In this document: piece after piece, positions 1 to 60,145 of the stretch
How positions within the stretch are numbered: the stretch's first letter is position 1
Layout of the letters: each line of letters begins with the position of its first letter
From: Girardia tigrina
Taxonomy: Eukaryota
Reading direction: 5' to 3'
DNA length: 64,000 nt
Assembly: GCA_001938485.1 (NCBI GenBank)
Contig: MQRK01228140.1
Location: 1 to 64,000, forward strand
The notes under the pieces: generated by a model
Databases searched by the model: none
Told to the model about the DNA's origin: nothing
Seen by the model: only the letters and a program-made list of their open reading frames with translations
Translations under genes and position numbers: made by a program

Positions 1-444
1 CTTTCAACACATTTAAATAATTTTCACTTCTCATGGTGGTGTTTGGAGGCAAGAACCACAAAGTGCACTTAATGTGTAGAAAATGTGAAAGTCAACAGAC
101 TTTTGTCCACAGCTGTAGATCTATGCTTGAAAAAATAATACCAAAAAATATTATTGTGCATTATTTGACTCTTGAATGGCCATGCGGTCATTTTGACAGC
201 AAGTTAATTTCCAACTAAGACCCTTTTAAGATGTTAAGTCATTCCTTTCGACATGATTTCTTCAAACTTCTACCCAAATTGTTAATATCTAGCAAAGTTA
301 AAAGTCAAAAAAATCAATAATTCAATTTTTGAATTTGAATATCAACGTATAAAAGTTAATTTTTCGGATCCGTTTAACTGGTTTTATTTATGCTTTTTTT
401 CGTTTATGTTTTTTTTAAATTATTATTTATTTTTTTAATGACAG

Positions 445-625
445 TTTATCAAATCTGGATGTCTTTCGGATATTCAACTGAATGACATTGATGATTATTC
501 CAAGACCTTTACTGCCATGAAGAATATGGGAATCAGTGACAAGGACTGCTTTCAGATTTTTGGAATAGTGGCTGCAATTTTACATCTAGGAAACATACAA
601 TTTGAAGAGTTTAACAGCTCTCAAG
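445..625 (+). CDS. myo6: Myosin VI exon (motor domain; first exon in window, gene starts upstream)
   Basis: ag|TTT ATC AAA...CAA G|gtatg; FIKSGCLSDIQLNDIDDYSKTFTAMKNMGISDKDCFQIFGIVAAILHLGNIQFEE matches the myosin VI segment ending AGVLHLGNIDFEE. Confidence 0.92.
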
Positions 626-951
626 GTATGCGATTTACAATTATTATTTATTTTTGCTGTTGTTATTATTATTTATATTATTATAAAAGACAATTAAAAT
701 TAGTTAGGGCATTTTTTAGGCCTAGGGCATTCGTTTTCATTCAGACATCAGTTATAAGTCGGAATGAAGTTTCTTCGCGAACCCGGAAGTTGTTATCGTC
801 AATAGTTTTTTATGACTTTGTAATAAATAACTGACGAGTACAATAATTTTTGTGAAAATTGTGACTATAAAAGTTTTAATAAGTAAACATGAAATAAATT
901 TTATTCCAAAATTGGTATAATGAATAAAACAATTACTATTTTTTTTGTTTA

Positions 952-5870: not shown

Positions 5871-7975
5871 TTATTTTCATAAACATTTTTCTTGACTACT
5901 CCACATAAAAATTAGGTTAACATGGTGGCATTCCGAACCGGAAAGGTTTTATGAAGATTCTATGTTACTTGTTACACATTATGTCGATGTACTTCATCTT
6001 GCTGGAGACAGAGTTCCTAAAGTTAACTTTGGCTCTCAGTTGTGATACTACCACATGTAGCATTTCCGAATAATTATATTCTGTAACAAATCCATAAAAA
6101 ATATGTGTCTGAGAGCACCTTCGCTGGACAATGCACCTCACTTTGTAACGACAGACTGGTTCAGTTGGGACTCATTTTCATCAAAATATCCTTTTTCTCA
6201 GTCATTTAAATCTTAGGACGTTTTGCATCATTGCATACTGGACCTTGAGTTTCAAATTTATCCATTTTTATGATAAATTGCACATTTTTTCTTGTGTGAA
6301 GGCGGAGGGGTATGATAAGCTTCTTGTCAAGCTAAGTGCGCATGCACGGCATTTCCCAAATTTCATTAATATCCACATTCTTTGCTCTGTTATGTAATTG
6401 TTTAACATAATTCAGGGTCATCTAAATAAGAAACGAATTTGTAAAATATATAATGTTTTTAAAACATGAGTAAGTATTTTAAAATAAGGTTTCAATATTA
6501 TTGTCCATGACTTACAGGTATATTTAAACGTGATTGTGAAAGTGAAACAGATAATTAATTAACTAATTAAATGGTTGATTAATCTGAATAACGATTAAAT
6601 ATAAAATAAATATCTAATTTTCTAAAAAAAATTTTTAACCTTGCCTTCATTTTCCATGGTGTTTGCAAATGATTTTGTTGTAAATAGACAACATGTTTTA
6701 AAAGATAATACTGTTAATCTAAGTGATCATTTCAATTTTCAGTATCCTTTTAGAGCTTAGTTGGCTTATTTCACAATATTTCTCACTATTTCGCTCTTTA
6801 TTTCACAGAATTTAAATTAATTTAACTTTTGAATAATTATTTTGTGCACTTTTTTTGATTTGTAAAACATTGAAATTTCCTGCCCCTGGCAGCGAAAATT
6901 AAATTCTTTCAACCGTTATTCGCGCTTGTGTTGCCGAAAAACATACGTGACAAGTTTGAAAACACGAAGACGCACTTCTTGCGTCTCGGATTTTCTAGGT
7001 CTTCTTCGTACCCATTAATAAATAATTTTAAAAGTTGAAATTTTGAAAAATGTTAATTGACGAATTTTAATAAATGAGAAATGAAAGAATTTCCGATAGT
7101 GATTTTAAGGATTTTTTTAGTTTTCGAAAATTGTTGTTTTGAATGTGGACTTTGTTGTGTTAACGTATTTTTATTTTTATTTCACTGAATTTTAATTAAT
7201 TTCACTTTTGAATAATTATTTTGTGCACTTCGTACATCTTCGTGTTTTGCATCAAGATAACAAGAAAGAAATATCATTTGTTTACAAAAGGAGATAATGG
7301 CATGGAAAAAGAAAATATAGTCTGGTGAACGCTTGTTTAACATTATTGATAAATAATTTAATTGAATAAATTAATAACCAAAGTCATCCATTTAAAAATA
7401 TATTTTAATTTTCTTCTCAATGAACTGAATATTTTCATATATCTTCTGAAAGGCTTGAGCGCACCAGGGTAATGATTATTGATAAAACGAAGTCCGTTTC
7501 ATGGTTATTAAAAGAAGATTTTCATCCGGACTTCGTTTTATCAAGAATAAATTAATATTATTGATTTCGTAAAACATCATTGAAACCGTTGAATAGCAAT
7601 GATCATAGAGACATGGTTCGAATTTTTCTTAGATAATAAATAAAATCAATAATCTTAAACTAGAGTTCACAATTTTTAAAAGGTTTTATAAAATATTATT
7701 AAAAATTGATTATTTTTTTAAACTAGTTACTAATTATTTTGTTATTAAAATATATGTTTTAACTAAAAATAAATCCATAATTATAGTTTCCCATCCACTC
7801 AATTCCTAATATTTGCAACGCCCATTTTTATAATATTCGTTCATTTGAATATTTGACTTCTATAATGTACATATATATGATATCAGTGAAATATTTCTAG
7901 AGAAAAAAAATAAAAAAATATACATATAAACAGTATTTTATTGAATAAATAATAATCTGGTTCATATTATTTAAG

Positions 7976-8275
7976 GTGGATGCCGGATAACTGAATCAAG
8001 CCAAGCAGCTCTTCGATCGGCATGTCGCCTTTTAGGCTTTCAACCAAATTTGTTAGCAGAATCCTTATGTAATAGATTTACCACTGCTGCGGGTCGGGGA
8101 GCTCAAGATAGCTTAAGAATAGCTTTAAGAGTAGAAGATTCTCAAAATGCAAGAGACGCGCTAAGCAAAGCCATTTATTTGCGCTTATTTGATGAAATAG
8201 TTTCATTGGTAAATCAATCTTTACCATTTAAAGATTCTGTCAATTATGTTGGTATTTTAGATATTGCTGGATTCG
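7976..8275 (+). CDS. myo6: Myosin VI exon (cardiomyopathy loop/TEDS site, switch II)
   Basis: ag/gt boundaries, phase compatible; NARDALSKAIYLRLFD...VGILDIAGF. Confidence 0.95.
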
Positions 8276-8463
8276 GTAAATATAATTTATGTTTCAGATA
8301 TAAATTAGATTACAAAAATGTCATGATGAAACAGTTAATTAGTTCTCAAATATTAGCATAAAATTTATAGACCACAAAATATAAACAAAAAATATTTACT
8401 AATTGTGAGGAATATTTTTAATTGTAAGAAAGTGTGAATGTATAAATGACGTATGTTAATTCA

Positions 8464-19864: not shown

Positions 19865-22330
19865 ACAGGTTTGGCTTAAAAGTTTCTGCCGATGAATAAA
19901 GCTTTCTAAAATTAGTTCTATGCATTCGCGGTTAATGAATTTTTAACATGTACTCTTCAGTAGTTTTGCAAACAATATATGTTATTATTTTCACAATTTG
20001 AACAGAACTTTTATAATAAAATACTTAATTTGTATAAAATTAAACATTGTTTAAATCTATTACGAATGTTTTTCGTTTTTCCAGTGAGTATTTGTACTGA
20101 AAATGCAGTTTTCTAGAGAAGATTTTAGAAAAATCATTTATTAAAACTAGAAGAGAAGACTGTCAACTGCCAATAATAATAAAGAAATCAACTGCATCCT
20201 TGGTGAAGGCACAGTTGGCCTCAGAATATGCTCCGACTGGGTTGCAAAATTCAATAGTGGAAGCTTTATCTGTGAGGATGAGCCACGCAGTGGACGGCCG
20301 TCATACACTTTGGAAGAGGAGATACTAACTGTTCTCAAAGAAGATCCACGAGCTAAAACAAGAAACATTGCTGAGTGCATTGGGAATGACAAGGAGACTG
20401 TGAGAAGACGATTGATTCAAATGGGAAAGCACTATTTGTGCAACGTGTGGATATTATATGTGCTGACTGGTGCAGCGAAGACAAATAGTTACAATCTGTT
20501 AGCAGTCACTTCGACAACTCCACTGCAACAATTTTCTATATCGCTTTATTACAGCTGATGAAACCTGGATTTATTGGCAAAACAGTGATCAACAACGGCA
20601 CAAGTCTTGATGAGGCGCTGGAGATAAACCAGTGGCGGAATCAAAAACCCCCTTACCAAAACGTAATTCATGCTAAGTCTATTCTGGGACTCACAAGGAA
20701 TCATATTGATGGACTTTTTGCCACCTAATGAGAGTATCACTACCAAATATTATTGCGACCTGTTGGAAAAATGTAGCCGTTTTTGAAAAACTACGAAGAC
20801 GAATGTCTGATTGGAATCTCTAGCTCCAGCACGATAATACGAGGCCCCATACGGCTAACATCACACGAGAGAAGATTACTCAGCTTTGTCTAAACATTCT
20901 TGGACATCCGCCATACTCTCCAGACGTTTTCCCTCTGATTATTATTAGGGTGAACAAAAGTCTTTTCGTATTTTTTATTAAAAATTTAAACATAATTTTA
21001 CAACAAATAAAAAAAAATTAAGTTTCAAAGTAAAGGCCATTTGAATCTATAGCTTGAAGCCATCTATGGGCAAGTTGTGGAATCTCGCTGCGGTACCAAT
21101 CCTTGTTCTTTGAAGCGAAGAACTGGTGACACCCGTTTTCAACCTTGGACAGATTATTGAAGCTGCTACCACGAAGAAAGTGTGCCATAGAGCGGAAAAG
21201 GTGATAGTCGGATGGCGCAAGATCCGGACTATACGCTGGGTGTGGAAAAAGTTCAAAGGCGTCGAGATTTTTGATTTTTCCTTTGTTTGTTTGGCGGTGT
21301 GCGGTTTTGCATTGTCCTGTTGTAGAAGAACTCTCTTTCGATTGATTAAAGCGGGGTATTTATCGCCAAGTGCCGCATACATTCGATCAAGTTGGGCGCA
21401 GTAAAGGTCAGCGTCGATGGTACGACCATTTGGAACCAGCTCGAAGTGAATCACGCCTTCGAAATTCCACCAAACACACAAAAGAGCCTTCTTTGAGAAA
21501 CGATCTCGTTTCGGTACCGGTTTCGCCATTTGTCCGGGGTCCAACCATTGATTTTGTTGGTCTGGATTACTGAAGTAAACCCACTTTTCATCGCAAGTTA
21601 CAATTCGACGGATGAAACGGTCATCGCACGGATTTTCAAGCAATTTATTGACAAGTTTCGAAACTATTTTCGGCTCGAATTTGTGTCAATTCATGAGGCA
21701 CTTCTCGACATCGTCTATTGACCTTACCAAGAGCGTGAAGTTGTGGTAAAATGGATGTTTGAGGAATATCGAGTTCGGCCGACAATCTACGAGTACATAT
21801 TGACGGATTTGTCTCGACGGCTTCACGAAATCTACGGAGATAAGTCGGCCTGAACGTACATTGTCTCCGATGTCAATGTCGCCTTCGTTGAACCTTTTGA
21901 ACCAATTTTGTGCAGTACGATTTGAGACCACATTATCGCCTTCAACTTCGCATATCTTCTTTTTTGCTGCAGTTGCGTTTAAACCATGTTTCCAGTAATG
22001 ACGTAAAAGAACACGAATTTCAAAATTTTCCATGCTTTTTCTAAAAGACCATAAAAATTATATTAACGACTAATTAGAAGTTTTAATATATATTGTGATA
22101 GAACAGTTCAAGAGCTTTAAAAACATATAACACATGTATATGAAATATCTTTATTTGGTAATAAGAAACAATTGAACAAAAAGACGTAGAAAATACGAAA
22201 AGACTTTTGGTTTACCCTAATACCTTTGTCGATCAATGAAATCTGCCTTGCAAGGAAAGGATTACGCCAGTTCATCTGCTGTATTACACGATATTCAACA
22301 ATATTCAAAATTTTTGAAAGGTTTAATGTA
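19865..22330 (+). mobile_element. Degenerate mariner, interrupted by a second mariner
   Basis: CEDEPRSGRP, ITADETWIY, QHDNTRPH, HPPYSPD; frame resumes (YLCRSMKSALQGK) after 22222. Confidence 0.8.
20945..22220 (-). mobile_element. Mariner DD34D, full length with frameshifts
   Basis: TIRs TTAGGGTGAACAAAAGTCTTTTCGTA / TACGAAAAGACTTTTGGTTTACCCTAA, TA TSD; TCDEKW, QQDNAKPH, YSPDLAPSD. Confidence 0.93.
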
Positions 22331-23497
22331 CGGTTATGCTTAAGTGCAATAAAAGCCAATTAAGACCTCATTTATTTTTCGATAAAGCAAACTTCTCCGA
22401 TTCTAGAAACCAGAAATACCGATGAAGCTATTCAAAAAATGTATTATTATATCTTAGAATTCGATATATTGAAAGGAGAGCATCCAATGCCAAACTTCAT
22501 TTTTATTGACGAAGCTGGATTTTGCGTATCTATGCGGCGAAATAAAGGTTGGATAGAACGTAGAAGACCTGCAAATGTAGTAGTTCCGGCAATTAGATCA
22601 CGAAACTTTAGTGTATGTGCTGCTTTGTCGTGTCAAGGGTTGATTAAGTATGACGTCATAGATCGAGCATTCAGACCAACGGATTTCAGAGAGTTTTCGG
22701 AAAGTTTAATTGATTTACTGAAAACGGAACATGAGAATGAGAAGTTTATTTTTATCGCTGACAATGCTTCCATCCACAAAGTGAGGAACATTAGAGAATT
22801 GGTGGAAGCAGCGCGTTTTATTTTACTGTTATTGTCGCCGTATAGCCTCTTTTTAAATCCAATTGAAAATAAATTTTCAAAGTGGAAAGGGCACGTAAAT
22901 TCGCTGGCATGTAATAATGAGGAAGATTTGTTTAGTGGTATTAGGAATAGGTTTGAAATTGTAACCGGCAGAGATTGTGAGAACTATTTGTTTTACATTA
23001 ATGAATCCAGTCTAAGATAGGAAACTGTGGAATAATATATATGTAAATGTAATATATGTTATGTAATATGTAAAATATACGTTTATTTTTTGTTTGTTTA
23101 ATTTATTTTTATTTTTTTGCTTTTAAGAAATATTAAAAGTTTAAATGGAAATGCAAAAATAAAAATTTTAACCCTCATGGCCCAAATTGAAATGCAAAAA
23201 TAAAAAATATTTAGCCCTATGGTCCAAATTGAAATGCAAAAGACCCAAATAGAAATGAAAACCCTGTAAACACATATTTTTATTTGTGCATTTATATTTT
23301 ATTTCTAAACGTATTTGTTTTGAGATACTAATATAATTTAATATTATATATTTTATAAATAACAATAAAATTTTAAAATTATTTACCAAATATTATCAAG
23401 TACAACTGTTAGGTTCGATTTCAAAAATAGAATTCATAACATTAAAAATTTATTTCTATAACACTTGAATATTTTAAAACAAATTTCCGAGGAGCTT

Positions 23498-26305: not shown

Positions 26306-27840
26306 GTAAGTTAAATATTGAACCATAATAATTATTTTATTTCAAAGGCTTTAAAAGCGTACCGCTGCCATGTTTTATAAATTAAGCTTAGTGTATGATA
26401 GTTGATCATTTCTCCCATATTTGTTTTACATTCGAGGTTTATATGCAAAAAATATTAAAAATATTTTAATGCAACTGTGATTTTCTTTGTACTTAATATA
26501 TGACCCACACTATCATGCATTTTTAATCATAATATATCTATTAAACTATAAATATTATGATCTAGCAAATGAAGTAAATTTCCTCTTAGTTTTAGATTTG
26601 ATAAACGTGCAAAATATCTTTAAAAAGTTTATATTTTTTGATTTTATTGGTACACCAGCTATGTTAATTTTTTTTGCTATCATTTTGGCTATCCATGTCT
26701 TTACAGTGTCTTTAAATTGACTACCATCGTTAATAAATGATTTGGTGACACTTAATACCGTGACAGTTAATCACCGACACTTAATACCTGCGACAGTTAA
26801 TACCGCGAATCGTATAATTTCTTGATAATATCATCTAGTTTTTCCTCAAAGTGTTTTGGCTGTCGGTACGGTTTTACCAATATTCGTTCTCCTTGCGTTT
26901 CAATTTTATGCGTAGTTAGTGTGGTCTTCCCTATATCATATTTGTCCACCATAAATATCGTTTTATATTCTATTAGTAATTTCATTAATGGTTCATCTAT
27001 CTTTATCACGAACTTCTACGAGGCTAAATATTTCTAAACGAACTATTATAGAAAATCTTTGAAGGATTATGCAAAATATTCAAAAATACTGGAAGGGCTA
27101 TGTGGAAAAAATAGAGATAAAAAATTGACATGGACAAAGGAATGTGACGAAGCATTTCAGACATTAAAAGATAAAATGACAAAAACATCGATCCTAGCAT
27201 ATCCAGATTTCGAAAAGGAGTTTATACTGGATACAGACGCCAGTTTTGATACAATCGGGGCAGTACTGGCACAGAAGGATGCATACGGAAGGGAAAGAGT
27301 AATTGCATATGGATCACACAAGATGAACAAACACGAACTAGGATACTGTATTACAAGAAAAGAATTATTGGCAATCTATTACTTTACCTAACACTTCAAA
27401 CATTTCTTATACGGAAAGAAGTTTCTACTTAGAACGGACCATAAGGCCATCACATTCATGATGACAACAAAGAACCGAATAACTCCACAATTCCAAACTT
27501 GGATAAACTTCCTTAGTGGACTAGACATGAGGATGGAATACCGCAAGGGCAAAAAACACACTGATTCAGATGCAATGTCGAGAAATACATGTGAACTATG
27601 TGTACAATGTCAGACAATGCACGATGACACTGAAAAAGGAAAAGTTAAAACTAGAATGCTAGCATTAACAGAAGATTCAGAAGAGTTCATTTGGCAAACG
27701 AATGATGAAGAAATAGAACAGATTAAAGAAAATATTAAAATGGGAAAGACAGAAGAATGGCTACTGAAAAACAATATCGTGACGACAATAGATAACAAAT
27801 ATTGGATCCTTATGAAGAAGAGAACAGACTTTATAGAAGA

Positions 27841-29091
27841 TGGACAGGAAGCCGTGTCTCCACGATATTTTGGGAAGAGAAGAAATGTTTATCGATTTAT
27901 CATAAGCACTCAGAGATCTCTCTTTTTGAATTTCATTGGGAATGTTTTTCACTATGATTCCCCGAACGTCCTTCAATTCACAATTGACCCGAGTCAAAGC
28001 CACCGGTGTTCGGGTACTGTATTTTTATTTTGAAAATTTAGAAGTATTTTATAATTATTCAACATTTCGTGCTCTAATTTAGCATCAACTTTAACTTTAC
28101 GAATTGATAAAGTTCCTGGGAAAAAGATGTCAATCAAGAGACAATAGGCCGATTCCGATTCCAGATCCTCGATCCGGTGGTATTGGAAATTCAGAGTTTT
28201 ATTGATCCAATTAAAAACGTCTTGTCGACTAATCACTTCATTATTCGTATTATTCTTGGGAACATTCACACCGTGATACATACTCAATTATCAATCAGAA
28301 AATTCGTCTTAAAACTACAGAAATCGAAAAAGATCCTTTGATTTTGTTGGTGGATTTACAGATTAATTTATTTAAATTAAATCGAACGCAACTTTTTTTT
28401 ATTTGTTTTCAAATATTTGTTCTTTCGCCAAAAAAAACACTTAAATTGACATTTTCAAATTGACATTTTTAAAAAATATTGAAATCTTTTAATTGTGATT
28501 ACAATTCACATTTAACATGCATTCACACACATACATTAAAAAAAACATACACTCAACCAATTATTTTCATTTACATTCACATATCATACAATCACATTCA
28601 TACAAACAAACATACATGCACACTTACATGCAGAGAAAAAATTTCCATTTATTGCAATTAAAAATAAAAATAAAATGAATGAATGAGGCTCACAATCTGA
28701 CCGAAATTAAAAACATTCGATTACGAAGGCTGTATGGAAATAATTCGAATGATTCTACAAGCCTATTAAAGTTTATTATCGTTTTAGTATGGCTTACTAA
28801 ACGCAACCATTGTTTTTAAGTTTTTAACCGGTTCTATTCTTCGACACATCATTGTCGTATGTTTGTTTATTTTATCCAGAGTTTTTACGTTACATTATTT
28901 TTAATTCATTTATTATTAATTTNNNNNNNNNNNNNNNNNNNNNNNNNNNNNNNNNNNNNNNNNNNNNNNNNNATTTATTTAATTTCTTTTTAATTACTTT
29001 ATTTATTTAATTTAATTATTTTAATTATATATTTTATTTATATACTGAAACTGGCAAAAATGTTCGGTCAAATCAGCAATTCTCCGCTCCA
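27841..29091 (-). mobile_element. TGGA...TCCA element copy 1 (EB1 cargo), 5-bp TSD GAAGA
   Basis: Removing the element and one GAAGA restores Gypsy pol FIEDIHKMLCHAG; termini shared with 40638-41899. Confidence 0.88.
27994..28281 (-). CDS. Intronless, C-truncated EB1/MAPRE-like calponin-homology domain ORF inside the mobile element
   Basis: VNV...SRQDVFNWINKTL...IEDLESESAYCLLIDIFFPGTLSIRKVKVDAKLEHEMLNNYKIL aligns with EB1 SRHDMLAWINESL...[44 protein letters not shown]. Confidence 0.85.
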   Translation of the reverse strand: MYHGVNVPKNNTNNEVISRQDVFNWINKTLNFQYHRIEDLESESAYCLLIDIFFPGTLSIRKVKVDAKLEHEMLNNYKILLNFQNKNTVPEHRWL

Positions 29092-29701
29092 GAAGATATA
29101 CATAAAATGTTATGTCATGCAGGAAGTAAGAAAGTATACAATTACATAAAAGATGATTTCGATATGCATGAAAATAAGACAACAGAAAAAGAAAATCGTA
29201 CAAATTTGCGAAAACTGCCAGAAAAGGAAGACGCTGACGGCAAAAACGAAAGAAAAACACATTAAACAATCTGCCGACGAACCATTTCAAAAAATTTACA
29301 TGTACTTTTGCGGACCATTCAGAAGGACTATGAATGGATACCAATACATTTTAGCAATAATCGATCAATTTAGTAGGTACATTAACTTGACCGCAGTGGC
29401 ACACCAGGACGAGAAGACTACACGAAAGGTACTATTAGAGAAATGGATTTGGAAATTCGGACCACCAAAAGAGATACACGTTGATAGAGGAAAAACTTTC
29501 GAATCAGCACTCTTTAAAGGAACGACGAAGAAATTTAAGACGGAGATAGTCTATTCAAGCCCTTATCACCACAACACTAACGGGATCATAGAAAGACAAT
29601 TCAGAACAATAAGAGACACCATAAATATACGATTAAAGGATGAAATGCATAGAGATTGGGTAGAAATGTTGGCAGAAATAGAATTCATGTTAAACGGTAC
29701 A

Positions 29702-30092
29702 ATGGTGTTTAACACCATCAACAAACTATATCGGATACCAGATACAGTTTTTGAAATGTCCAAAATTAATTGAATTGACTGATCCGGTACATATTAGAAA
29801 GAGCAAATTCAACTTCTATGTAAAGGATATAAGTGATCGTGATTATGATATTATAAATGTAAACCTACAAGAAGTAGGAACAAGATCAGATGGGAAGCTG
29901 AGTCAGTTTAGAGAACAATATTTTCGATCATATGATGGATTAAAATTTAGAGATTTTAGGGGTCATGACATACCAATAATGGGCTTGTCTAATTATTCGA
30001 GAGCATTTATCAAAATATGCTTACAAGGAAGAAAAGAAAAAGATGGTAAAAATTATCCAATATGGAAATTATCAGAAATTCGTTGTATTTAA
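29702..30092 (+). pseudogene. Orphan ~130-aa ORF with a single frameshift
   Basis: ATG 29702 MVFNTINKLYRIPDTV joins ORF 29751-30092 if one T is removed from GTTTTTG. Confidence 0.45.
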
Positions 30093-45863: not shown

Positions 45864-46509
45864 CTAGAGTTTGAAAGCGAGTGATTGTGATAGAATGTTT
45901 TGTATACAATTTGAGAGCATTTTGTGAACTTTCTTAATTCTTTTCTTCTGAAACTCTAAATAGACAATCGTGTTTGGCGATAATATTACTGGAACACTGA
46001 TGAGATACGCCATTTGTCCATAGGTAATTTTGAGAAAGATATAATTTTTGAGGAGCATTTCAGCGATTAATAAATGCTTCTCTAATTTAACTAGCTCAAG
46101 AGGAGTTTTATTGTCATTATTGTTTGATTCGAGAATACAATGTCTTTTGAGCAACAATTTAACTATTTCTATATATCCATTTTTACAAGCAATATGAATT
46201 GGTGTATCACCATTATTGTTTTGTATGTCTACATTACATTTCTTATCAAGAAGTAATTTAACTATTTCTACATTTTCATTTTCACAAGCATTATAAATTG
46301 GTGCCTCACCATAATTGTTTTGTACATCTACTCTACAATTCTTATCAAGAAGTTTACTTATTTCTTTACTTATATTCCAACAAGCAAAATAAATTGGTGT
46401 GTCAGCATTTTTGTCTGTTACATCTACATTACAATTCTTATCGAGAAGTAATTTAACTACATCTAAATTATTTTCTTGACAAGCGATAGAAATTGGTGCA
46501 TCGCCATAT
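45864..46509 (-). pseudogene. Start-less ankyrin-repeat paralogue of the ANK-RING gene (4 repeats + cap, different C-terminus, no RING)
   Basis: Open frame YGDAPISIACQENN...TPIYFACWN...APIYNACEN...TPIHIACKNG...LEFQK, preceded by in-frame TGA. Confidence 0.85.
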
Positions 46510-46519
46510 CATTGCAAAG

Positions 46520-49305
46520 TAAATTATTGCAATGTAATCATAATAAATAATATTCAGCTAACGGATAAATTATAGAACGACTTTTGAAAATAGGATGATA
46601 TATTTTGTAATAAAATCTAAAATTAAAATGAATCTGTAAAAGAAATTATTTTGATATATTTAAAAAATATAAAAAATTAATTTAAAACAATGTTTTAATA
46701 ATATTTAATGAAAATATATATTATTTATATTAGTAAAAACAAAAATTGTAAAAATTAAAATAAACTTTTTAAAAATATTTGTTTTATACATTTAAAATGA
46801 ATAAATAAAAATTTTCATTTTTAAAATAATTATTCACAAAATATGTTTTATGTAAAAATATTATTGTATCTTTTTTGAATTTTAAGTTTAAAAAAGTATC
46901 TATCATTTAATAATAAAATAAACATAAATTAATGTATTTAATATAAAAATTATGATATCTATTATTTTTTAATTTAATAATAACTATGCGTTATATTTTT
47001 AGAATAAAAAAGTACAAAAATAGAGATTAAAATTTATGATAATATTTGAAATTTATTATTTTTTGCTATAATCATATAAATGTTATGCAGTATATTTTTT
47101 TAATTAAATTAATGAATACTTTATTGTCTCTTCATTGAGAACATTTAAGTAGTGTAAAAACAAAGAAATAAGTTTTTTTATTTGTATGACAATATTCTAA
47201 TTTAAATTTAAAATATATTTTCGTAATATAATTGAAATAAATTATTATTTAAAAAAAATACTTTTTAAAAATAATAAAAATGAGATTTAAAATAATTTGT
47301 ATTATTTTAATTGATTATAAATAAAAATGCTTTAATGATTTAGAGTATGAAATATTATTTACGATATATAAATTAGAAATCGAATTAAAATTATTCTTAA
47401 TTTTGAGTTTTAAAATATTTAATCATGATTTAAAAAATAGTATTGACAATTATGACCAACGAACCATATTAAATATTTTGAAAAGTGTATTATAAATAAA
47501 TGATTATGATTTAATGGCTTTAATATATTTTGGTAAATGTTTTTGTAAATTGCAATGTTTTAAGTGATATTAATTGAAACTTCATTTTTCCATTTTTTTC
47601 ATTTTACTATTTTTTTCTTCCTAAAAAATGAATATTGATCAAATAAATGAAAGATTAAAACATTTTATATTTTATAAAATAATAGAAATGAGTATCATAA
47701 AAAAGCAGCTGCATTTCAAAATGAAGGGATCCCATTTAAAAATTTTGTCGATCAAATTGAGAAACCTATAATTAATGTAGCTGAAAATAAAAAAGTGATT
47801 ACTATAGAAGGTTATTTAACTAAAAAAAGCACTTGAAATAGAAGGTGATAAAAAAATAATGGCAATTGAACGACTTAAAGATGAAACAGACATACAAAAT
47901 AATACTAATAATATTGTTGGGTTAATCTGATGTTTTAAATATTTATAAAAAACCTCAATTGATTTTATAAAAAATATATTTTTATGTACAGTTTAATTAC
48001 AAGAAAAATAATGTTGGGGTATTAGAGTGATCGAACTTTATTAAAATGAAAATTAAAAAGTCGATAAGTATTTTACAATTATTTATTAAAAATTAAATCG
48101 ATTTAAAAATTACTGGAAGAGAGTAACGTGTGAGGCCTCATTAATAAGATCCATGGATCAAAAAATTAATATTCAAGCTTCACATTCAATTTTTCTGTTA
48201 AACATTTTCAAATAGTACATTTATTACATAATCATCATTCTCATATACAAGCTACAAAACTAATGTTAATTTAGTCTGAAGATGGCGGGTAATCAACCGA
48301 TATTAATAAAAATAAATTTTTATTTATTTTCATAATACACTTTTCAAAATATTTAATATGGTTCGTTGGTCATAATTGTCAATACTATTTTTTAAATCAT
48401 GATTAAATTTTTTAAAACTCAAAATTAAGAATAATTTTAATTCGATTTCTAATTTATTTATCGTAAATAATATTTTATACTCTAAATCATTAAAGCATTT
48501 TAATTTATAATCAATTAAAATAATACAAATTATTTTAAATCTCATTTTTATTATTTTAAAAAATATCTTTTTTTAAATAATAATTTATTTCAATTATATT
48601 ACGAAAATATATTTTAAATTTAAATTAGAATATTGCCATACAAATAAAAAAAACTTATTTCATTGTTTTAACACTACTTAAATGTTCTCAATGAAGAGAC
48701 AATAAAATATTCATTAATTTAATTAAAAAATATACTGCATAACATTTATATGATTATAGCAAAAAATAATAAATTTCAAATATTATCATAAATTTTAATC
48801 TCTATTTTTGTACTTTTTTATTCTAAAAATATAACGCATAGTTATTATTAAATTAAAAAATAATAGATATCATAATTTTTATATTAAATACATTAATTTA
48901 TGTTTATTTTATTATTAAATGATAGATACTTTTTTAAACTTAAAATTCAAAAAAGATACAATAATATTTTTACATAAAACATATTTTGTGAATAATTATT
49001 TTAAAAATGAAAATTTTTATTTATTCATTTTAAATGTATAAAACAAATATTTTTAAAAAGTTTATTTTAATTTTTACAATTTTTGTTTTTACTAATATAA
49101 ATAATATATATTTTCATTAAATATTATTAAAACATTGTTTTAAATTTATTTTTTATATTTTTTAAATATATAAAAATAATTTCTTTCACAGATTCATTTT
49201 ATTTTTAGATTTTATTACAAAATATATCATCCTATTTTCAAAAGTCGTTCTATAATTTATCCGGTAGCTGAATATAATATATTACGATTACATTGCAATA
49301 ATTTA
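46520..49305. repeat. ~975-bp inverted repeat arms (46520-47493 / 48332-49305) around an ~840-bp spacer
   Basis: Near-identical reverse-complement match, e.g. TTATAGAACGACTTTTGAAAATAGGATGATA versus TATCATCCTATTTTCAAAAGTCGTTCTATAA. Confidence 0.92.
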
Positions 49306-49742
49306 AATCGATTTGAGTAGTCATTATCCTTTATATCATATAAAATAACAGAATATTTCTATTAATATTTTCCAATAATCAATAGTATCTCGTTTGAGAA
49401 ATAAGAGAATGCAAAGAACTGATTTAAGATCAAGATCTGTTTTCATTTTAATAATATATTTAAATTATTTTTTAAAATTAATTGCGAAAAAAACATTTTT
49501 ACCTTTATTATCATTACATATTAATTTATTACATCGATGATTAAAGTTTTCTAAAAAATAAATCTTGTAAAATATAGAATTGTACAAGTGTGATAAAAAA
49601 CTATATTATTGAAAATATTTTTTAAGGGTACCATTTAAAAATAATTTAGGTTTTAAAAGCCAATCAAATTTGATCGAAATATAATTTTATTATTTAATAG
49701 TCTCTTGAAAACAATATTATTCACAAATTATAACTATTCACA

Positions 49743-52700
49743 ATGTTTGTAAAGTTTTTAAAATCAGAGAAGACGAAATGTAATTATTCATCAATACATT
49801 TTGCTTGTACGAAAGGACAAAAGGAAATGGTAAAATTACTTCTTGATAAGAATTGTAATGTCGACGAACAAAATGTACTAGGTAAGGCACCAATTCATAT
49901 TGCTTGTCAAAAAAATAATGTAGAAATAATTAAATTACTTCTCGATAAGAATTGTAATGTAGACTTAACAGACAAAAATGATAACACACCAATTCATATC
50001 GCTTGCCAAAATGAAAATGTAGAAATAATTAAATTACTTCTCGATAAGAATTGTAATGTAGACTTAACAGACAAAAATGATAACACACCAATTCATATCG
50101 CTTGCCAAAATGAAAATGTAGAAATAATTAAATTACTTCTCGCTAAGAATTGTAATGTAGATGTAACAGACAAAAATGATAACACACCAATTCATATTGC
50201 TTGTTGGAAGGGAAAAAAAGAAATAATTAAACTTCTTTTTGATAAGAGTTGTAGTGTAGACGTACAAAACAAATATGGCGATGCACCAATTCGTATAGCT
50301 TGTGAAAATGAAAATGTAGAAATAGTTAAATTACTTCTCGATAAGAATTGTAATGTAGATGTAACAGACAAAAATGATAACACACCAATTCATATCGCTT
50401 GTCGAAATGAAAATGTAGAAATAATTAAATTACTTCTCGATAAGAATTGTAATGTTGATGTAACAGACAAAAATGCTGAGACACCAATTCATTTTGCATG
50501 CTGGAATGGAAATAAAGAAATAATTAAACTTCTTCTTGATAAGAGTTGTAAAGTAGACGTACAAAACAAAAATGGCGATGCACCAATTCATATCGCTTTT
50601 CAAAAAAATAATTTAGATGTAGTTAAATTACTTCTCGATAAGAATTGTAATGTAGATGTAACAGACAAAAATACTGACACACCAATTCATATCGCTTGTC
50701 GAAATAAAAATGTAGAAATAGTTAAATTACTTCTCGATAAGAATTGTAATGTGGATGTAACAGACAAAAATACTGACACACCAATTCATTTTGCTTGTTG
50801 GAATGGAAATAAAGAAATAATTAAACTTCTTCTTGATAAGAGTTGTAAGGTAGACGTACAAAACAAATATGGCGATGCACCAATTCATTTCGCTTGTCAA
50901 AAAAATAATTTAGATGTAGTTAAATTACTTCTCGGAAAGAATTGTAATGTAGATGTAACAGACAAAAATGCTGACACACCAATTAATTTTGCATGTTGGA
51001 ATGGAAGTAAAGAAATAATTAAACTTCTTCTTGATAAGAATTGTAGAGTACATGTACAAAACAATTATGGCGAGGCGCCAATTCATATAGCTTGTGAAAA
51101 TGAAAATGTAGAAATAGTTAAATTACTTCTCGATAAGAATTGTAATGTAGATGTAACAGACAAAAATGATAACACACCAATTCATATTGCTTGTCGAAAT
51201 AAAAATGTAGAAATAGTTAAATTACTTCTCGATAAGAATTGTAATGTAGATGTAAAAAGCAGATATAGTGACACACCAATTCATATCGCTTGTCGAAATG
51301 AAAATGTAGAAATAATTAAATTACTTCTCGCTAAGAATTGTAATGTAGATGTAACAGACAAAAATGATAACACACCAATTCATATTGCTTGTCGAAATAA
51401 AAATGTAGAAATAGTTAAATTACTTCTCGATAAGAATTGTAATGTAGATGTAAAAAGCAGATATAGTGACACACCAATTCATATCGCTTGTCGAAATGAA
51501 AATGTAGAAATAATTAAATTACTTCTCGATAAGAATTGTAATGTTGATGTAACAGACAAAGATGCTGAGACACCAATTCATTTTGCATGCTGGAATGGAA
51601 ATAAAGAAATAATTAAACTTCTTCTTGATAAGAGTTGTAAAGTAGACGTACAAAACAAAGATGGCGATGCACCAATTCATATCGCTTTTCAAAAAAATAA
51701 TTTAGATGTAGTTAAATTACTTCTCGATAAGAATTGTAATGTAGATGTAACAGACAAAAATGCTGACACACCAAATCATTTTGCTTGTTGGAATGGAAAT
51801 AAAGAAATAATTAAAGTTCTTCTTGATAAGAGTTGTAGTGTAGACGTACAAAACAAAGATGGCGATGCACCAATTCATATCGCTTGTCAAAAAAATAATT
51901 TAGATGTAGTTAAATTGCTTCTAGATAAGAATTGTAATGTAGATGTAACAGACAAAAATACTAATACACCAATTCATATCGCTTGCCAAAATGAAAATGT
52001 AGAAATACTTAAATTACTTCTCAATAAGAATTGTAATGTAGATGTAACAGACAAAAATGATAACACACCAATTTTTATGGCTTGTTGGAAGGGAAATAAA
52101 GAAATAATTGAACTTCTTCTTGATAAGAGTTGTAAAGTAGACGTACGAAACAAAAATGGCGATGCACCAATTCATATCGCTTTTCAAAAAAATAATTTAG
52201 ATGTAGTTAAATTACTTCTCGATAAAAATTGTAATGTAGATGTAACAGACAAAAATGATAACACACCAATTCATATTGCTTGTCGAAATGAAAATTTAGA
52301 GATAGTTAAATTACTTCTCGATAAGAATTGTAATGTAGATGTAAAAAGCAGATATAGTGACACACCAATTCATATCGCTTGTCGAAATGAAAATGTAGAA
52401 ATAGTTAAATTACTTCTTGATAAGAAATGTAATGTAGACATACAAAACAATAATGGTGATACACCAATTCATATTGCTTGTAAAAATGGATATATAGAAA
52501 TAGTTAAATTGTTGCTCAAAAGACATTGTATTCTCGAATCAAACAATAATGACATTAAAACTCCTCTTGAGCTAGTTAAATTAGAGAAGCATTTATTAAT
52601 CGCTGAAATTCTCCTCAAAAAGAATATCTTTCTCAAAATTACCAATTCACAAATGGCATATCTCACCAATGTTCCACTAAGATTATCACCAAACACGATT

Positions 52701-53162
52701 GTCTATTTAGAGTTTCAGAAGCTTTCTTCTTTGGATAAATCACAACTGTGTAGAAATATTCAAGATTTGGCTTTGAAATGGTACATGGATAACAAAAATA
52801 GTTTTCTAAATCTTTATGTTATGCATTTCAAAAAGCAAAAAAATATTGTACTCTTGAAACAGTATAATAAATTATTTGCATTAATGGGTCCGATGGAACG
52901 AAATTGTTTGGAGGAGCCTTACCAAAGCATCAAAAAACACAGATATCGTTTTGCTAAGCGACATCATTTTCTGACAAAAAATAAGAAAATAAGTATCAAA
53001 ATATCAGAAAAGATGTGTACTGTTTGCTATACTGAATCAGTCAAAATAAGAATAGATTGTGGTCACATATTTTGTGACAGTTGTTCAAGAAGTCTCAATA
53101 AATGTCCTGTGTGCAATTATTCGTTACAGAGTAAAAACAATTTTATTGAGATTAATATATAA
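49743..53162 (+). CDS. Intronless ankyrin-repeat (28 x 33 aa) + C-terminal C3HC4 RING protein, putative E3 ubiquitin ligase
   Basis: 1139-aa ORF; TPIHIAC...EIVKLLLDKNCNVD repeats; CTVC...CGHIFCDSC...CPVC RING. Confidence 0.93.
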   Translation: MFVKFLKSEKTKCNYSSIHFACTKGQKEMVKLLLDKNCNVDEQNVLGKAPIHIACQKNNVEIIKLLLDKNCNVDLTDKNDNTPIHIACQNENVEIIKLLLDKNCNVDLTDKNDNTPIHIACQNENVEIIKLLLAKNCNVDVTDKNDNTPIHIACWKGKKEIIKLLFDKSCSVDVQNKYGDAPIRIACENENVEIVKLLLDKNCNVDVTDKNDNTPIHIACRNENVEIIKLLLDKNCNVDVTDKNAETPIHFACWNGNKEIIKLLLDKSCKVDVQNKNGDAPIHIAFQKNNLDVVKLLLDKNCNVDVTDKNTDTPIHIACRNKNVEIVKLLLDKNCNVDVTDKNTDTPIHFACWNGNKEIIKLLLDKSCKVDVQNKYGDAPIHFACQKNNLDVVKLLLGKNCNVDVTDKNADTPINFACWNGSKEIIKLLLDKNCRVHVQNNYGEAPIHIACENENVEIVKLLLDKNCNVDVTDKNDNTPIHIACRNKNVEIVKLLLDKNCNVDVKSRYSDTPIHIACRNENVEIIKLLLAKNCNVDVTDKNDNTPIHIACRNKNVEIVKLLLDKNCNVDVKSRYSDTPIHIACRNENVEIIKLLLDKNCNVDVTDKDAETPIHFACWNGNKEIIKLLLDKSCKVDVQNKDGDAPIHIAFQKNNLDVVKLLLDKNCNVDVTDKNADTPNHFACWNGNKEIIKVLLDKSCSVDVQNKDGDAPIHIACQKNNLDVVKLLLDKNCNVDVTDKNTNTPIHIACQNENVEILKLLLNKNCNVDVTDKNDNTPIFMACWKGNKEIIELLLDKSCKVDVRNKNGDAPIHIAFQKNNLDVVKLLLDKNCNVDVTDKNDNTPIHIACRNENLEIVKLLLDKNCNVDVKSRYSDTPIHIACRNENVEIVKLLLDKKCNVDIQNNNGDTPIHIACKNGYIEIVKLLLKRHCILESNNNDIKTPLELVKLEKHLLIAEILLKKNIFLKITNSQMAYLTNVPLRLSPNTIVYLEFQKLSSLDKSQLCRNIQDLALKWYMDNKNSFLNLYVMHFKKQKNIVLLKQYNKLFALMGPMERNCLEEPYQSIKKHRYRFAKRHHFLTKNKKISIKISEKMCTVCYTESVKIRIDCGHIFCDSCSRSLNKCPVCNYSLQSKNNFIEINI

Positions 53163-54199
53163 TTTTCAATAAGGATTGACAAACAACGGTGTCACAAACC
53201 TCTGATAACTTACGTTGGAACATCCAGTGTGATAATCGATCATCTGAAAACGTTTTTCTATTCATTCAGTTTTTGTGTTTAAATATTAACTTATTTGTGT
53301 GTAATACTTGAAACTCTCATTGTGTTTGAAAATTGTGAATAAATAAATTTCTATTTCTTTTAATTTCAAATGTTAAATTAAAGAATTTATTGAATGAAGA
53401 TTGTTTATCCCAATCAATCGTGAAGAATAATTAGTTTATATTATAGTTTTTAAATAGTTTATAATAAATTTAAATTAATTTGAATAATTAAATTAATTAT
53501 TTAAAATCATTTATAATATTTAAAATAAGTATTTCAAATAATAAATAAATGTGATTAGGTATTTTTTTGCTTATTTTATTGGCTTTTTGTGAATGTCTGG
53601 TAAGTGTATGTGTGTATTGTGTGTATGATATATTAATAATTGATTGATTGAAAGTGTGTGTGTTATGTGAGTGATAATTTTGTTATTGTGAATTGTTATC
53701 ACACTTTAAATCAATTTTTTAAAAGACAATTTAAATCAGTTTGTAAAAAGAGAATTTGTCAATTTAAAAAAATAAATAAAGGAATTTAAAAAAGTTGTCA
53801 GTGTTCAAATGAATTTAAAAAAAAGATGAAAAATTATATAGTGAGATCTTATACATAATTGGAATTTCAAGAGAAAGATAATAAAAACGTATCGTGTCGA
53901 GATTCCTTTGACTTCTTAAAAAAATTAAATAAAATCATTAGAGCCAAAAATTGGTTGGCGGTATACATTTTTCTGAATTCTTTTGATAAATTACGAAAAT
54001 TTGATGCAACAAATCTGGATACTCTCGTTAACGTGGGTCGTTTTCCAGAACAGAGTAGTTTTGGTGTTAATATTATCACTATACTGATTTCAAGAATGAC
54101 TCCAAGGAAAATGTTCTCCGACTATTCGAGTTTGAACTTATTTTCTGTTTACACCCGAACACCAAATAAGCTTTAATCAAATTAATACTAATTTGAATG

Positions 54200-57100
54200 T
54201 GTTGCGTTAGAATCAAACTTTAATATAAAACATATAACATAAAATTTGAGTATCGATTTAAACAAAATAATCAAAAGATCGCAAAACACATAAAGATAGA
54301 GAATTCACATGAAAATATAAGAATTACAATAAATAAATAATAAATAGCGCAAGAATAAACACAAAATGATACAAAAAACATAAATATCGATAGAAAAATG
54401 AATATTTACGAGACAATAATCGACAAAACCGGAATAATAAACGAAATCAAACAGGAAAAAATCCGACAAAATTATTATAAAATCTAGAATAATTTTACGA
54501 ACAAAACAAAATAAAAATTACGAAAATCCATTAAGAATTCGCAGAGAAATAGCAAAATTGAAGTAAAAATAATAAATAATAAATCAATAAATAACGATTA
54601 ATGAACGGATTTGGATGAAATAAACAAATAAAATAGTCGGAAAAAATCACTAAAATACTCGTAAAATACCAAAAGATAATAAAAGATAATAACCACATCG
54701 AAAAACGAGAGAAAATAGCAAGTAAATACATAAATTGGAACATCGCCAAATAAGGAAGTAACGATGAAAATCTCACAAAATGAAGACGAAAAATTCATAA
54801 AATAATCGGAAAATCAAGGAAAAATCAGCAAGATACAAAAACACCGCAATCAACACTAATCGACAAAGATTTCGAAAGAAAATAATTAAAAATTAATAAA
54901 ATTGTATTTTACTGTAATACTGTGATCAAAAAACGCAAATCTGAATGTAAATCGATCGATAAAAACGGAAAAAAATCGTAAAAATTATGATAAAAATTAT
55001 GCGATAGAAATCATGAAAAAAAGCGCAGTGAAAATAGAAAAATACAAAAAGAAACATAAAAAATCAATTAAATCGAAAATCATTCAAAATAATCAATCAA
55101 TGAGTCCAATATTATGCGGACGCCACTGAAACAGATTCCAATCGATTTAGAGTAACGTAAAAAGCTGCAAAAACGCAATAATGATAAATATCCATCGAAG
55201 CCGCAATAAATTATAAATTGAAAATATATCAAACAGAATGAATTAGATGTGGTAAAAATCTGAAAAAAATTCAAACAATCAGGAATAAACAGATTAACGG
55301 AAATAATCGAACTCCGCATGAAAATCCGACTGAAATCGTTGTGAAAAATAAAATCCGACGAAATCACGCCCATAACGAATATCGGCCAAATTAGAAGATA
55401 ATTCGAAACTCATAATCAATTAACGTGAGGATCACTGAAAAACACAATTACCAAAAATCCTGAAAGGTAAAATCAAAAGTTTCAGACAAAAATCAAAATT
55501 TCAATCAAAAATCAGAAAAAGTTAAAATCAAATTTAAATGAATGTATCAATAAAATAAAGTCCTCACTCTCCTCTGGATCGTCGCAGAGGCAGGCCTTTA
55601 CATTATGCCGGCTCCAGGAGGTAAAAAACGAAATAAAATATATGAAAGATAAAGGTCATTCAAAAAATGTAAATTTCACTCACTTTGAAACGGAATTTCC
55701 GCATTGGATTTTGAGTGCGCGCGCGGAGCATCGTCACTGACATAATGCAATTGATCCGAATAAACAATGATGCTCTGAAGGTCCGGAAAAAGGCTGAAAA
55801 GATTATCAAAATTAGTAAAATTAAAACAAAACAAATGTACTTACCGGATTAATCATCGATCCAAAATTTTCTAAATTTTTTAATTCTAGAAAGTCCAAAA
55901 ATGGAACTGACATGTTCCAATCAAAATTTGTCGTACGATTCCAAAACGTACGTGGACCAATTAAGAATTAACACGCGACAATTTTAGACTGAAATCCCAG
56001 TATAAATACTGAACAGTTTTAGACAAAAATCAGACTTAAAAATCAGAATAAAAAATTGAGAACGAAAATAGAATAGTTTTGAGAATAAAAAATTGAATAT
56101 TTTTGAGAACAAAAACTAGACAATTTTTAAAGACAATTCTTGGTATTGTTAAAATTTTCGCGTCCGAGAGAGAAAGTAATGGATTACTCTCTCTCTCTGG
56201 TCCCGAATTTTTAATTTTTATCCCTACAAACGGTCGGTCATCCGCTTTTTTATGTTTTTATTTTTATGTTAAATCGTTTTACTGCACAATTATAAATATT
56301 TCATAACCATTTATTTTATGTTAATATTTTTTTTGATGATCAATTTCAGCTCGAATACCCTCGGGTAGGATAACGTTTAAAATCATTTTATTCAAAATGA
56401 AATTCTTGAAGGCTGGTTCCGGCATGCGTGTTAGCGCGGCCAGTATAAGTCCCCGGATTATGAAGCCTCTGAGCGATATAAAAACTCAAGAATTCATACC
56501 GGAAGGCAGTTTCGGAATCCGACTGCAAATCTGTTTGACCGCTTACGTAGAATAGGGATTAAATAATTAATCAACAACTCGTATTATAACTGTTATAATT
56601 TTAGATGATACAACAGATAGAACTGCTGGAAGCTAAGCGAACAATTGAGAAATTGCAGCAAGAAAATAAAATGTTAAAGAGAGTCAGGGCGACAGATCGC
56701 AAAGAAATACTGAACCTGCGAGATAGCGTAGAGCGCTTATCACTGAAGTTGAGAGTATCGAAGGAATCTTCTATAGAGCCTGAGGAGTATGCTCGTGTAG
56801 TGAGACGAGGTGTAGTAATGGAGAGCCGAATAAGAGAGCTCGAGTGCCTTTATTCTGAGCAATTTCAGATCCGCATGAGAGAAAAGCTAAGGCCCGACGA
56901 AGGGAAAGAGTCGCGCACCTTAGGAACTCAATGGTGTATCGCGGATTATTGAGGTGAGGACTATGTGAATAGGCGAAAGCGTCAAAGGCTCCTTAAGAGC
57001 ATAGATAATGTTGTAAAATGTTTTTCAAAATAAAATTTTTTAATGGGTTTATATGAGTTGTTGATGTATTATTTTAAAATATAACATGCACTGATTAGTT

Positions 57101-57650
57101 TAAAATTTTGTTAGCATTTCTTTCTTCTTCTATAACTCTTTATCTTGACACCAAAATCATACAAATGAATGGAGGATTTGCGTTAGGGTATTCGAGCCCA
57201 TACTTTTGTAAATAAGCTTTATAATTAAAATAATAAAAGCTGAAATGTTGTCATAGATATCATACCTGTTAAGGGGTTTCAACATACCAAGATATAACAT
57301 ACAGTAGCTGGGGTCGAGACAACACATCATGGGGTTACTACATTAATGAAAATCGTTTTAATTTAACATCACATCATACCCATGGGGGCTGATCTGGTCT
57401 ATCTGGTCTTAAACCTGTGTAGATCTGGAACCTGGTAGGTCCTCATTACTTATCACTACATGCAGATGGTATGTTGGGTGAGAGGCAAGTTTTGGTCATA
57501 GACATCGAGAGATTAAGAGTTAAACTATACATGCAGGGACTAAATTAGTATGATAGTGTTTTATGGTTGGTTACCGATAACCTGGGGGCTCAAAGCCAAA
57601 ATCTCCCAAGATATGTTCACATGTTTTAAAACACCACGAACGCCACAACA
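54200..57650. mobile_element. 3451-bp TGTTG...CAACA insertion (long solo-LTR-like) with 4-bp TSD AATG
   Basis: Excision restores ATTTGAATGATATTC as seen in copy 2; TATA box at 56001; no transposase or pol. Confidence 0.82.
56179..57033 (+). pseudogene. Four-exon coiled-coil gene inside the LTR-like element, with two in-frame stops
   Basis: Exons 56179-56232, 56350-56364, 56412-56546, 56605-57033, all phase 0 with gt-ag introns; TAA in exon 1 and TGA at 56950; C-terminal RRKRQR. Confidence 0.65.
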
Positions 57651-58449: not shown

Positions 58450-59537
58450 GCTCCACTTCTGTCGAGACGTTGCATTTTGAGTGTTCACAGCCTGTAAGAG
58501 ACTCTTCATATTCTTCTTCAATTTTATTCACGAATCTTCGATTATCTCCTAGTCTTCTGTCTTCTATATCTCGATATCTTGGTTGATTGTATCCTAATCC
58601 TCGATAGTTATTGTCACCTGTATTTTGCTATCGTCTTCTGCCATTTAGGTTTGTATAGCATTTACTTTCACTGTGGCCTTTATCTTGACATCTTTTGCAT
58701 TCGATGTTTGGACAGTTTCTTCTTATGTGTCCCTGTTGTCCACAACCATAACATTTTATTGGTCTCCTTTCCGAATAATTTCTTATCCTGTGTCCTTCAT
58801 TTCCACATCCGAAACACTTGATTGGTTTTCTTTGTCTACACGTTTCACTTACGTGACCTACTTTTTCACAATTACTACATTTGACGGTTTTCCTGCCTTG
58901 AGCGTATTCTGTAGTATTTCTACCAACCGCTGTATGATTTTGTCAGTATTTACTGTCTCCTGTTACTGCTCCTCTGTAACTCCGCGTCTGTTTTGCATCC
59001 CCTGGTCTCTTACTACATTCACGTCTTGTGTAACACTTTTGACGTCATGTACTGCCTTTATCTTTTCTTTTAACTCATCTATTATTTCACTTTGTTAAGT
59101 CTCATTTCCTTCTTTATGTCCACATCATCACAACAATGTAACAATAATGCTTCCGTGAGGGCCTCTTTTGAAAAGTCATGTTTCAAGATCTTGGCTGTGA
59201 GCTTTTCTACTTTCTCACAAAATACTTCCGGTATATCTTCCTTCATCCTGTACCGGCATGCCTCAGTCAGGTCTTCGAATAATGAGGAAGTTCGAGAGAA
59301 TGCTTTTCTCAATCGGTCTTTATAACCTACTATTGTCTTATCTACCGCTTTGTATTCATCTTTCAGATCTCTGTCCAACAAACAAACGACTATTGTCTCT
59401 TGTTTGGCCTTCGCTATTCCTGCAAAATTAAAGAATATTTCACATTCTTCAATAAATGTCTCCACATTATCGCCTTTCCTGTACTTTTCAGGTAACAGTT
59501 GACCAGTGAAAATATTCATTGCAGCGTTAGTCGCCAT
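58450..59537 (-). pseudogene. Gypsy gag remnant with four CCHC-type zinc knuckles
   Basis: PEKYRKGDNVETFIEECEIFF...; CSNCEKVGH, CFGCGNEGH, CYGCGQQGH, CKRCQDKGH. Confidence 0.85.
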
Positions 59538-60145
59538 GTGAAAAATAAAAAATGATATAATAAGACAACTATTAAAAAATCAAAAACGTTTTTAAAAATA
59601 AAATATTTTTAATGTGTTTTTAAATATATTAAAAAAATTAAAAATGATATAATAAAAGAAAATCATAAAAAATTAAACATCTATTTAAAAATAAAAAATA
59701 TCTTTTAATCTATCTATTAAATATCTTAAAATTAAAAATGTTAAGAAAACTATAAAATATTAAGAATAATATATTAAATAATATATTAAGAAAACTATTT
59801 TCGATTTTAAAAATATTTGAATTATCCATCGAATTATTCCAATTATTGTGAATATTAAAAAAAAATATTTTTTATTAATAATCACAATTTATTTTCTTGT
59901 GAGGATATCAGTTTGTAAACCTAATAACATTATAATTACTAATAAGTAATTAAGTACATAGCTATACAAATGTACCACGTAGCAAATGCTGTTATTCTCT
60001 AATATTTAATATGATGTTTATGATACAGCCTTTTCAGGGGGCGTGGCCATATTGATTAAATTATTTGGTAAATAATTATTCGATGCCATTTTAGATTTTA
60101 CAGTCTTAAAATTAATAATAATTAAACAAATAAAAAAACCTTGAA

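Follow-up and report, generated by a model that had tools for sequence, protein, structure and literature searches.

The insertion at positions 54200–57650 of the window (the whole 64,000-nucleotide stretch of Girardia tigrina DNA that was analysed) is a 3,451-bp solo LTR derived from a Burro-like giant Gypsy element. The protein gene that it holds is real but restricted to 56605–57033. On balance, we favour a reading in which the solo LTR carries this selected 142-aa gene with its own promoter, a splice to an acceptor and a poly(A) site in the same LTR. Solo LTRs are usually taken as non-coding leftovers, whereas here a selected gene lies among promoter-like and poly(A)-like signals. The features of the insertion are as follows.

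54196–54199, + strand: left target site duplication (TSD), 4 bp, AATG
54200–57650, + strand: solo LTR, 3,451 bp, TG...CA, of a Burro-like giant Gypsy element (from copies, PBS/PPT junctions and parent domains)
54200–56029, + strand: A-rich part, putative U3; conserved ORF absent on both strands
56001–56008, + strand: TATA box, TATAAATA, in place in 46 of 49 sequences
56030–56175, + strand: initiator-like TCAG with a putative transcription start, then a hypervariable ATG-free leader
56176–56181, + strand: candidate 5′ splice donor whose GT is retained in 49 of 53 sequences, with 3 gaps
56179–56214, + strand: upstream ORF of 11 codons (exon 1 of the sequence-only reading), closed by a family-wide stop
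56350–56364, + strand: 15-nt block, conserved and flanked by TTCAG and GTAGG; either a micro-exon or a hairpin
56412–56546, + strand: nucleotide-conserved block with three predicted hairpins, open and in phase with the ORF
56599–56604, + strand: acceptor-like TTTTAG directly 5′ of the start codon (from the sequence)
56605–57033, + strand: 142-codon ORF under purifying selection, three predicted helices; private stop of the window copy at codon 116 (56950–56952)
56971–56988, + strand: basic RRKRQR motif, past the stop of the window copy, kept in relatives
57029–57075, + strand: AATAAA overlapping the stop codon (25 of 26), then a conserved GT-rich element; putative poly(A) site
57076–57650, + strand: putative U5, with a weaker second TATA-like motif and a second AATAAA
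57651–57654, + strand: right TSD, 4 bp, AATG

The insertion and its parent element

A search of the genome itself with 56380–57060 as the query gave 1,065 candidates, 40 of which were scored; the 39 scored loci besides the window were 88–91% identical to the query. Flanking sequence was retrieved for 30 scored copies, and in these flanks the similarity among copies ends at 54200 and 57650. Both ends were present in 14 of the 30. Among the resulting 15 both-ended sequences (14 copies and the window), 11 had an exact 4-bp TSD, one had a mismatched TSD, one had none, and two stood behind a common purine tract and are 3′ LTRs. Given the exact duplications and the same end bases in the copies, the LTR ends are more than chance. 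The sequence-only reading had described TGTTG at 54200, CAACA at 57646–57650 and an AATG duplication on either side, all of which are present, and it had named other copies sharing these termini as a test; genomic copies do start and stop at the same bases. A second copy within the window was absent among the 20 largest direct-repeat families shown.

The purine tract abuts the LTR exactly at 27 places, and the PBS directly follows the LTR at 39 places, with 0 in the controls for both junctions. The PBS is complementary to host tRNA-Pro(TGG) genes, CCA included; the CCA end of a tRNA is added after transcription. Searches of the same genome gave 1,065–1,545 candidates for the LTR gene versus 74 and 122 for internal probes, all of them lower bounds. 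Since the former far outnumber the latter, solo LTRs probably predominate.

Upstream of the purine tract, protease, RT, RNase H and integrase were found in Gypsy order. A single 3,258-aa frame on one contig contains a Ty3-like capsid, two CCHC knuckles and a Monjiviricetes fusion glycoprotein. The Ty3-type capsid match (E 1.4e-6) is just under the Pfam cut-off, and the mononegavirus-like env (PF24664, E 1.9e-76) lies in frame between gag and protease, giving the parent polyprotein the order gag–fusion-glycoprotein–PR–RT–RH–IN. Downstream of the PBS there is a 448-aa ORF with zf-TRAF and MATH domains, followed by four small ORFs. Summed from separate contigs, the parent is ~33 kb long and its polyprotein has ~5,900 codons; the 5′ and 3′ halves of a two-LTR element were seen on different contigs of the fragmented assembly. 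The earlier proposal of a solo LTR from a giant Burro-like element is thus supported by TSDs, PBS/PPT junctions and parent anatomy.

In several copies, the polyprotein continues for ~1,300 codons beyond the integrase (L070:4199–8120). This stretch has no Pfam match and contains hydrophobic signal- or membrane-like stretches; it is possibly a second surface protein. At the BCL2 position before env, a helical segment is present, for which Pfam, the PDB sequence search and the Atlas gave no BCL2 match; it carries what we take to be a BH2-like motif. The ubiquitin/SUMO-like segment gave a weak PB1 match only, a dUTPase match was not found in the domain search of the parent element, and named Burro sequences were absent among the 120 RT matches listed. 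A divergent 14-3-3-like ORF (L061:8332–8865) was observed near a truncated element copy, apparently outside the element.

A Burro-like element has been described from Dugesia tigrina, and its authors suggest a provirus (PMC6431247). As far as the available part of that report goes, the parent resembles Burro/GYPSM1 in its ~33 kb, two CCHC knuckles, long LTRs and PR-RT-RH-IN, in a TRAF-MATH gene as a separate upstream ORF, and in a mononegavirus-type fusion glycoprotein in frame in the gag–protease interval (PMC6431247). It differs in three respects: the polyprotein here has ~5,900 codons when summed, ~1,300 of them past the integrase, where 5,140 codons were reported; the BCL2 and dUTPase labels were not reproduced; and a protein gene lies in the LTR here, while the same part of the report mentions none for the Burro-like element (PMC6431247).

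The protein gene and the conserved block upstream

Codon-level selection was assessed on an alignment of the window and 52 of 61 loci, namely those covering 56345–57035. Within 56605–57033, changes shared by at least four copies of the 53 sequences were mostly synonymous (S/N 86/30, dN/dS 0.10, p 7e-32), and private changes were neutral (S/N 49/154, dN/dS 0.92). The other two sense frames of this last exon gave dN/dS of 2.0 and 3.3, and a comparable selection signal was absent from the 3′ flank of the ORF. Pairwise pS and pN within the 142 codons were 0.36 and 0.056. The protein gene that the sequence-only reading had placed inside the LTR is thereby borne out for its last exon. The frame is open in 31 of 53 sampled copies, the sample having been picked by similarity to this region. 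The ORF is present both in PBS-adjoining LTRs (L167, L170) and in a PPT-adjoining LTR (C253766). A clearly more diverged version, at L176:693–990 in an LTR that adjoins a PBS, suggests an older subfamily.

The stop at 56950 occurs in none of the 52 other sequences and so arose in the window copy. The RRKRQR motif, also pointed out earlier, is present at 56971–56988 and conserved in relatives. Such relatives made up 8 of 11 candidates in a protein collection (74–82% identity, from metagenomes), and all seven with an intact N-terminus have the Met start at the same place, it being noted that gene callers favour Met starts; their DNA was not found in metagenome scans. AlphaFold predicted three helices with a basic C-terminal helix (mean pLDDT 79, pTM 0.30), and replacements cluster in helix 1, where they affect 18 of 55 columns; the other two helices have 4 of 48 and 3 of 38.

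A profile search of 1.84 billion representatives returned two close relatives only and no distant homologue. The product gave sub-threshold coiled-coil matches only in Pfam and no match in fold searches of viral and PDB libraries, and the Atlas was uninformative on its function. One PDB sequence match, with E 0.008, was discounted as a probable coiled-coil coincidence. Homology between the LTR ORF and the other small ORFs of the element was not found.

The sequence-only reading had drawn a larger gene, a 210-codon frame in four exons with stops at 56212 and 56950. This frame can be read in the sequence, and the six GT/AG dinucleotides are all where it had put them, but a 210-aa protein does not follow. 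It had been expected that other copies lack both stops. This holds for 56950 but not for 56212, which is a stop in 26 of 30 copies (2 sense, 2 gapped) and in 46 of 52 in the larger set (2 sense, 4 gapped), and the four-exon frame is therefore not open in most copies. With a family-wide stop, exon 1 is not coding as drawn, and its length stays a multiple of three in only 14 of 29 copies. For the 15-nt exon and exon 3 a coding signal was not established either, selection being confined to 56605–57033. In exon 3, codon-level selection was absent (shared S/N 1/12; pS 0.096, pN 0.074), and conservation was alike at the three codon positions (0.086, 0.083 and 0.072). Together with the predicted hairpins, this equal conservation makes 56412–56546 look like an RNA element. 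Its hairpin folding is modest (mean z −1.8); no recurrent two-sided change was seen among the listed pairs of the hairpins, and nothing real was matched in Rfam.

Spliced reads at the three predicted introns, a further expectation of the four-exon reading, were sought in five public runs, two of them containing the sequence weakly (share 0.06) and three chosen by label. Among the joints listed, none was a GT-AG joint at the predicted introns, in four runs on the window and three on L047, and in the one run on record as RNA, contigs cross 56547–56604 unspliced. Since all runs consist of contigs and may contain DNA, the missing joints are no proof of absence. In the genome, five junction patterns revealed no intron-less or spliced copies; their matches, none of them a joint, were 0, 2 unrelated, 1 point variant and 5 non-junction. 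Three of the last five were diverged copies, near-identical, in which an insertion just after the gag AG breaks the frame.

It is conceivable, if rather unlikely, that the message has several exons after all, the short AT-rich spacers being true introns and the product starting at 56424 with ~183 aa. Its weakly constrained N-terminus would then double as RNA structure, and exon 3 could also give gag a phase-0 start codon. This would fit the openness of 56412–56546 in the ORF-matching frame only (2 stops in 1,357 codons versus 126 and 77), its three recurrent ATG positions, all in the ORF frame, and its freedom from shared length changes, whereas the spacers (41–52 and 58–62 nt) vary freely. 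The AG/GT pairs are kept in 46–52 of 53 sequences, and a 42-nt GT..AG stretch with a common in-frame TAG occurs in ORF d, an internal ORF of the element. However, the exon-3 changes given above lack a codon signal, the bases around GT/AG are as conserved as the dinucleotides themselves, and neither junction reads in the five runs nor junction copies in the genome were found. In addition, the seven relatives with an intact N-terminus all start at the Met of the 142-aa ORF, with the gene-caller bias already mentioned.

Signals around the gene and its proposed expression

The sequence-only reading had noted TATAAATA at 56001 and TCAGAC at 56030, and both are found there. Hypervariable sequence begins right after the initiator-like motif. 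Up to the GT at 56176, 36 of 37 leaders contain no ATG, where shuffling expects 2.9 per leader, and their mean identity is 46%. The leaders share ancestry and many repeats, and GAT is rare in them too, so this depletion is supporting rather than decisive. Between the GT at 56176 and the ORF there are 4–10 ATGs, so that all upstream ATGs come after the candidate donor. The donor is only a moderate match to the splice-donor consensus, at a site picked after seeing the data; a host-gene search for host splice sites found nothing. Given the upstream ATGs and an ORF that starts directly behind TTTTAG, the ORF likely needs splicing, which we infer from the sequence. The AATAAA at 57029 is partly forced by the Lys codon and stop. 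Placed between the conserved TATA and the poly(A) signal, the ORF probably lies in an R region of ~1 kb.

Based on these signals, we suggest the following route for expression of the 142-aa gene. A short LTR message would start near 56030 under the LTR's own TATA. One splice to 56604/56605 would remove the upstream ATGs together with the hairpin block. This may be a cis splice from the 56176 donor, which would give AAA-ATG, or the trans-splicing of a spliced leader. The message would then be polyadenylated inside the same LTR, behind the ORF. If R spans ~1 kb and includes the gene, the short message could come from any 5′ LTR or solo LTR, independently of the rest of the element. Only unspliced RNA would be packaged, which would be why every copy keeps the intervening sequence; the absence of spliced DNA copies fits such packaging and is equally compatible with no splicing. 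The gene copy of the window itself is broken at codon 116. When recombination removes the element, the gene would stay in place in the solo LTR, and it would travel with about a thousand scattered copies.

A second TATA-like motif at ~57075 (18 of 26) and a second AATAAA at 57232 (19 of 26) follow downstream, and this pair allows a location of the gene in U3, which we regard as improbable. The gene would be a self-contained cassette with its promoter at 56001 and poly(A) at 57029, comparable in position to MMTV sag and HIV nef, which are genes in the U3 of vertebrate retroviruses. Genomic RNA would come from the second promoter at ~57075–57100, and a short R, which is the usual LTR arrangement and which this reading fits, would end at ~57250, close to ATTAAA/AATAAA at 57220–57237 (20 and 19 of 26). 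On the other hand, the second TATA is absent in 8 of 26 sequences including the window, its spacing to the nearest initiator-like motif is short, and the genome would be truncated ahead of R by a strong poly(A) site in U3. With sag and nef the LTR gene shares coding inside an LTR, but it is located downstream of the best TATA, probably in R, and belongs to an invertebrate Gypsy element.

It is highly improbable that the ORF plays no part in the element, as a captured or decaying passenger, or that it belongs to a nested element. The lack of a known domain or distant homologue, the joints not found in the five runs and the 31 of 53 open frames would suit such a reading, but it is largely refuted by purifying selection that acts on shared and not on private changes, as selection at the time of replication gives; in addition, 5′, 3′ and solo LTRs all contain the ORF as an integral part.

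As for the function of the 142-aa product, no homology or fold support was obtained in Pfam, profile, Atlas or fold searches. We tentatively suggest, by analogy, that this basic helical protein may be Rev- or CERV-like, so that the element passes from making short spliced messages to making its ~30-kb unspliced genome. HTLV Rex is a small helical protein with an Arg-rich motif next to structured RNA. HIV Rev is likewise a small helical protein with an Arg-rich motif, and a structured RNA block adjoins, as with the LTR gene (PMC10309623). To both Rev and Rex there is resemblance only, since sequence or fold matches are absent.

The guess is based on Cer1, a Gypsy element of C. elegans with a spliced, partly SL1 trans-spliced message (PMC3315495, PMC10309623). 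Its product CERV, a protein of ~60 kDa whose gene lies between the LTRs, is required for unspliced genomes to be exported (PMC10309623). Both elements would thus have a spliced message (here inferred) for a novel protein in a Gypsy element with an unspliced genome; in contrast to Cer1, the gene here is in the LTR and its function is guessed by analogy. Foamy-virus LTR microRNAs represent another coding capacity of LTRs. Among the literature titles and abstract openings examined, there was no report of an LTR-encoded ORF in Burro or Gypsy elements; Grohme 2018 may describe LTR transcripts. The element type is already known, and the selected gene inside the LTR and the ATG-less gag start described below, neither of which is mentioned in the available part of the Burro-like description (PMC6431247), appear to be new.

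Accessory ORFs, the start of gag and the window

The four small ORFs between TRAF and gag (L135:2109–6903) measure 94, ~113 and 149 aa, with one in two parts. These ORFs, a–d, are under selection (pN/pS 0.12–0.31, 6–19 sequences each), and none of the three scanned had a Pfam match above the cut-off. ORFs a, b (at its second Met) and c start 0–1 nt behind a T-rich AG, the distance from AG to start being 5–10 nt in ORF d and 21 nt in TRAF. An AG this close to a random ATG has a background of ~2%, the ORF sites compared having been chosen after viewing. The 42-nt stretch of ORF d, which ends in its TAG, is a candidate intron.

The gag frame begins after a T-tract and an in-frame TAG, i.e., an acceptor-like AG. 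Its first Met comes only after 138 codons (L135:7461–7874), a stretch under selection, with pN/pS 0.22 across the initial ~130. In 23 of 28 copies this 5′ stretch is free of ATG in every frame. Read-through of the TAG was considered as the gag start and rejected, no in-frame Met preceding the TAG in 26 of 27 copies. Translation of gag must begin at a non-AUG codon or at a start brought in by an upstream exon or by a spliced leader. Reported spliced leaders of parasitic flatworms end in ATG, and planarians trans-splice (PMC12582326).

Judging by these sites, the accessory ORFs and gag of the parent follow the acceptor-AG design of the LTR gene. It is a speculative extension that the element may be built like a complex virus, all of its genes being opened by splicing, with solo LTRs as stand-alone cassettes of a trans-acting, Rev-like regulator and the gag Met supplied by an upstream exon or by the terminal AUG of the flatworm spliced leader. 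The element offers testable handles on how a >30-kb retroelement full of splice acceptors makes unspliced genomes, and on whether a retroelement takes its gag start codon from host trans-splicing.

Elsewhere in the window, pieces of two DDE transposases, of another Gypsy RNase H/integrase and a gag-like ORF were found (21047–23020, 27392–29773 and 59082–59579), the gag-like ORF having no Pfam match. Exons of a host myosin motor gene, with a 7-kb intron between, occupy 442–8361. An uninterrupted frame at 49734–53162 encodes 27 ankyrin repeats and a C-terminal RING-like finger, and a shorter inverted copy of it lies at 45864–46508. Between the two ankyrin copies, the arms 46520–47496 and 48329–49305 are 97–98% complementary, a head-to-head duplication.
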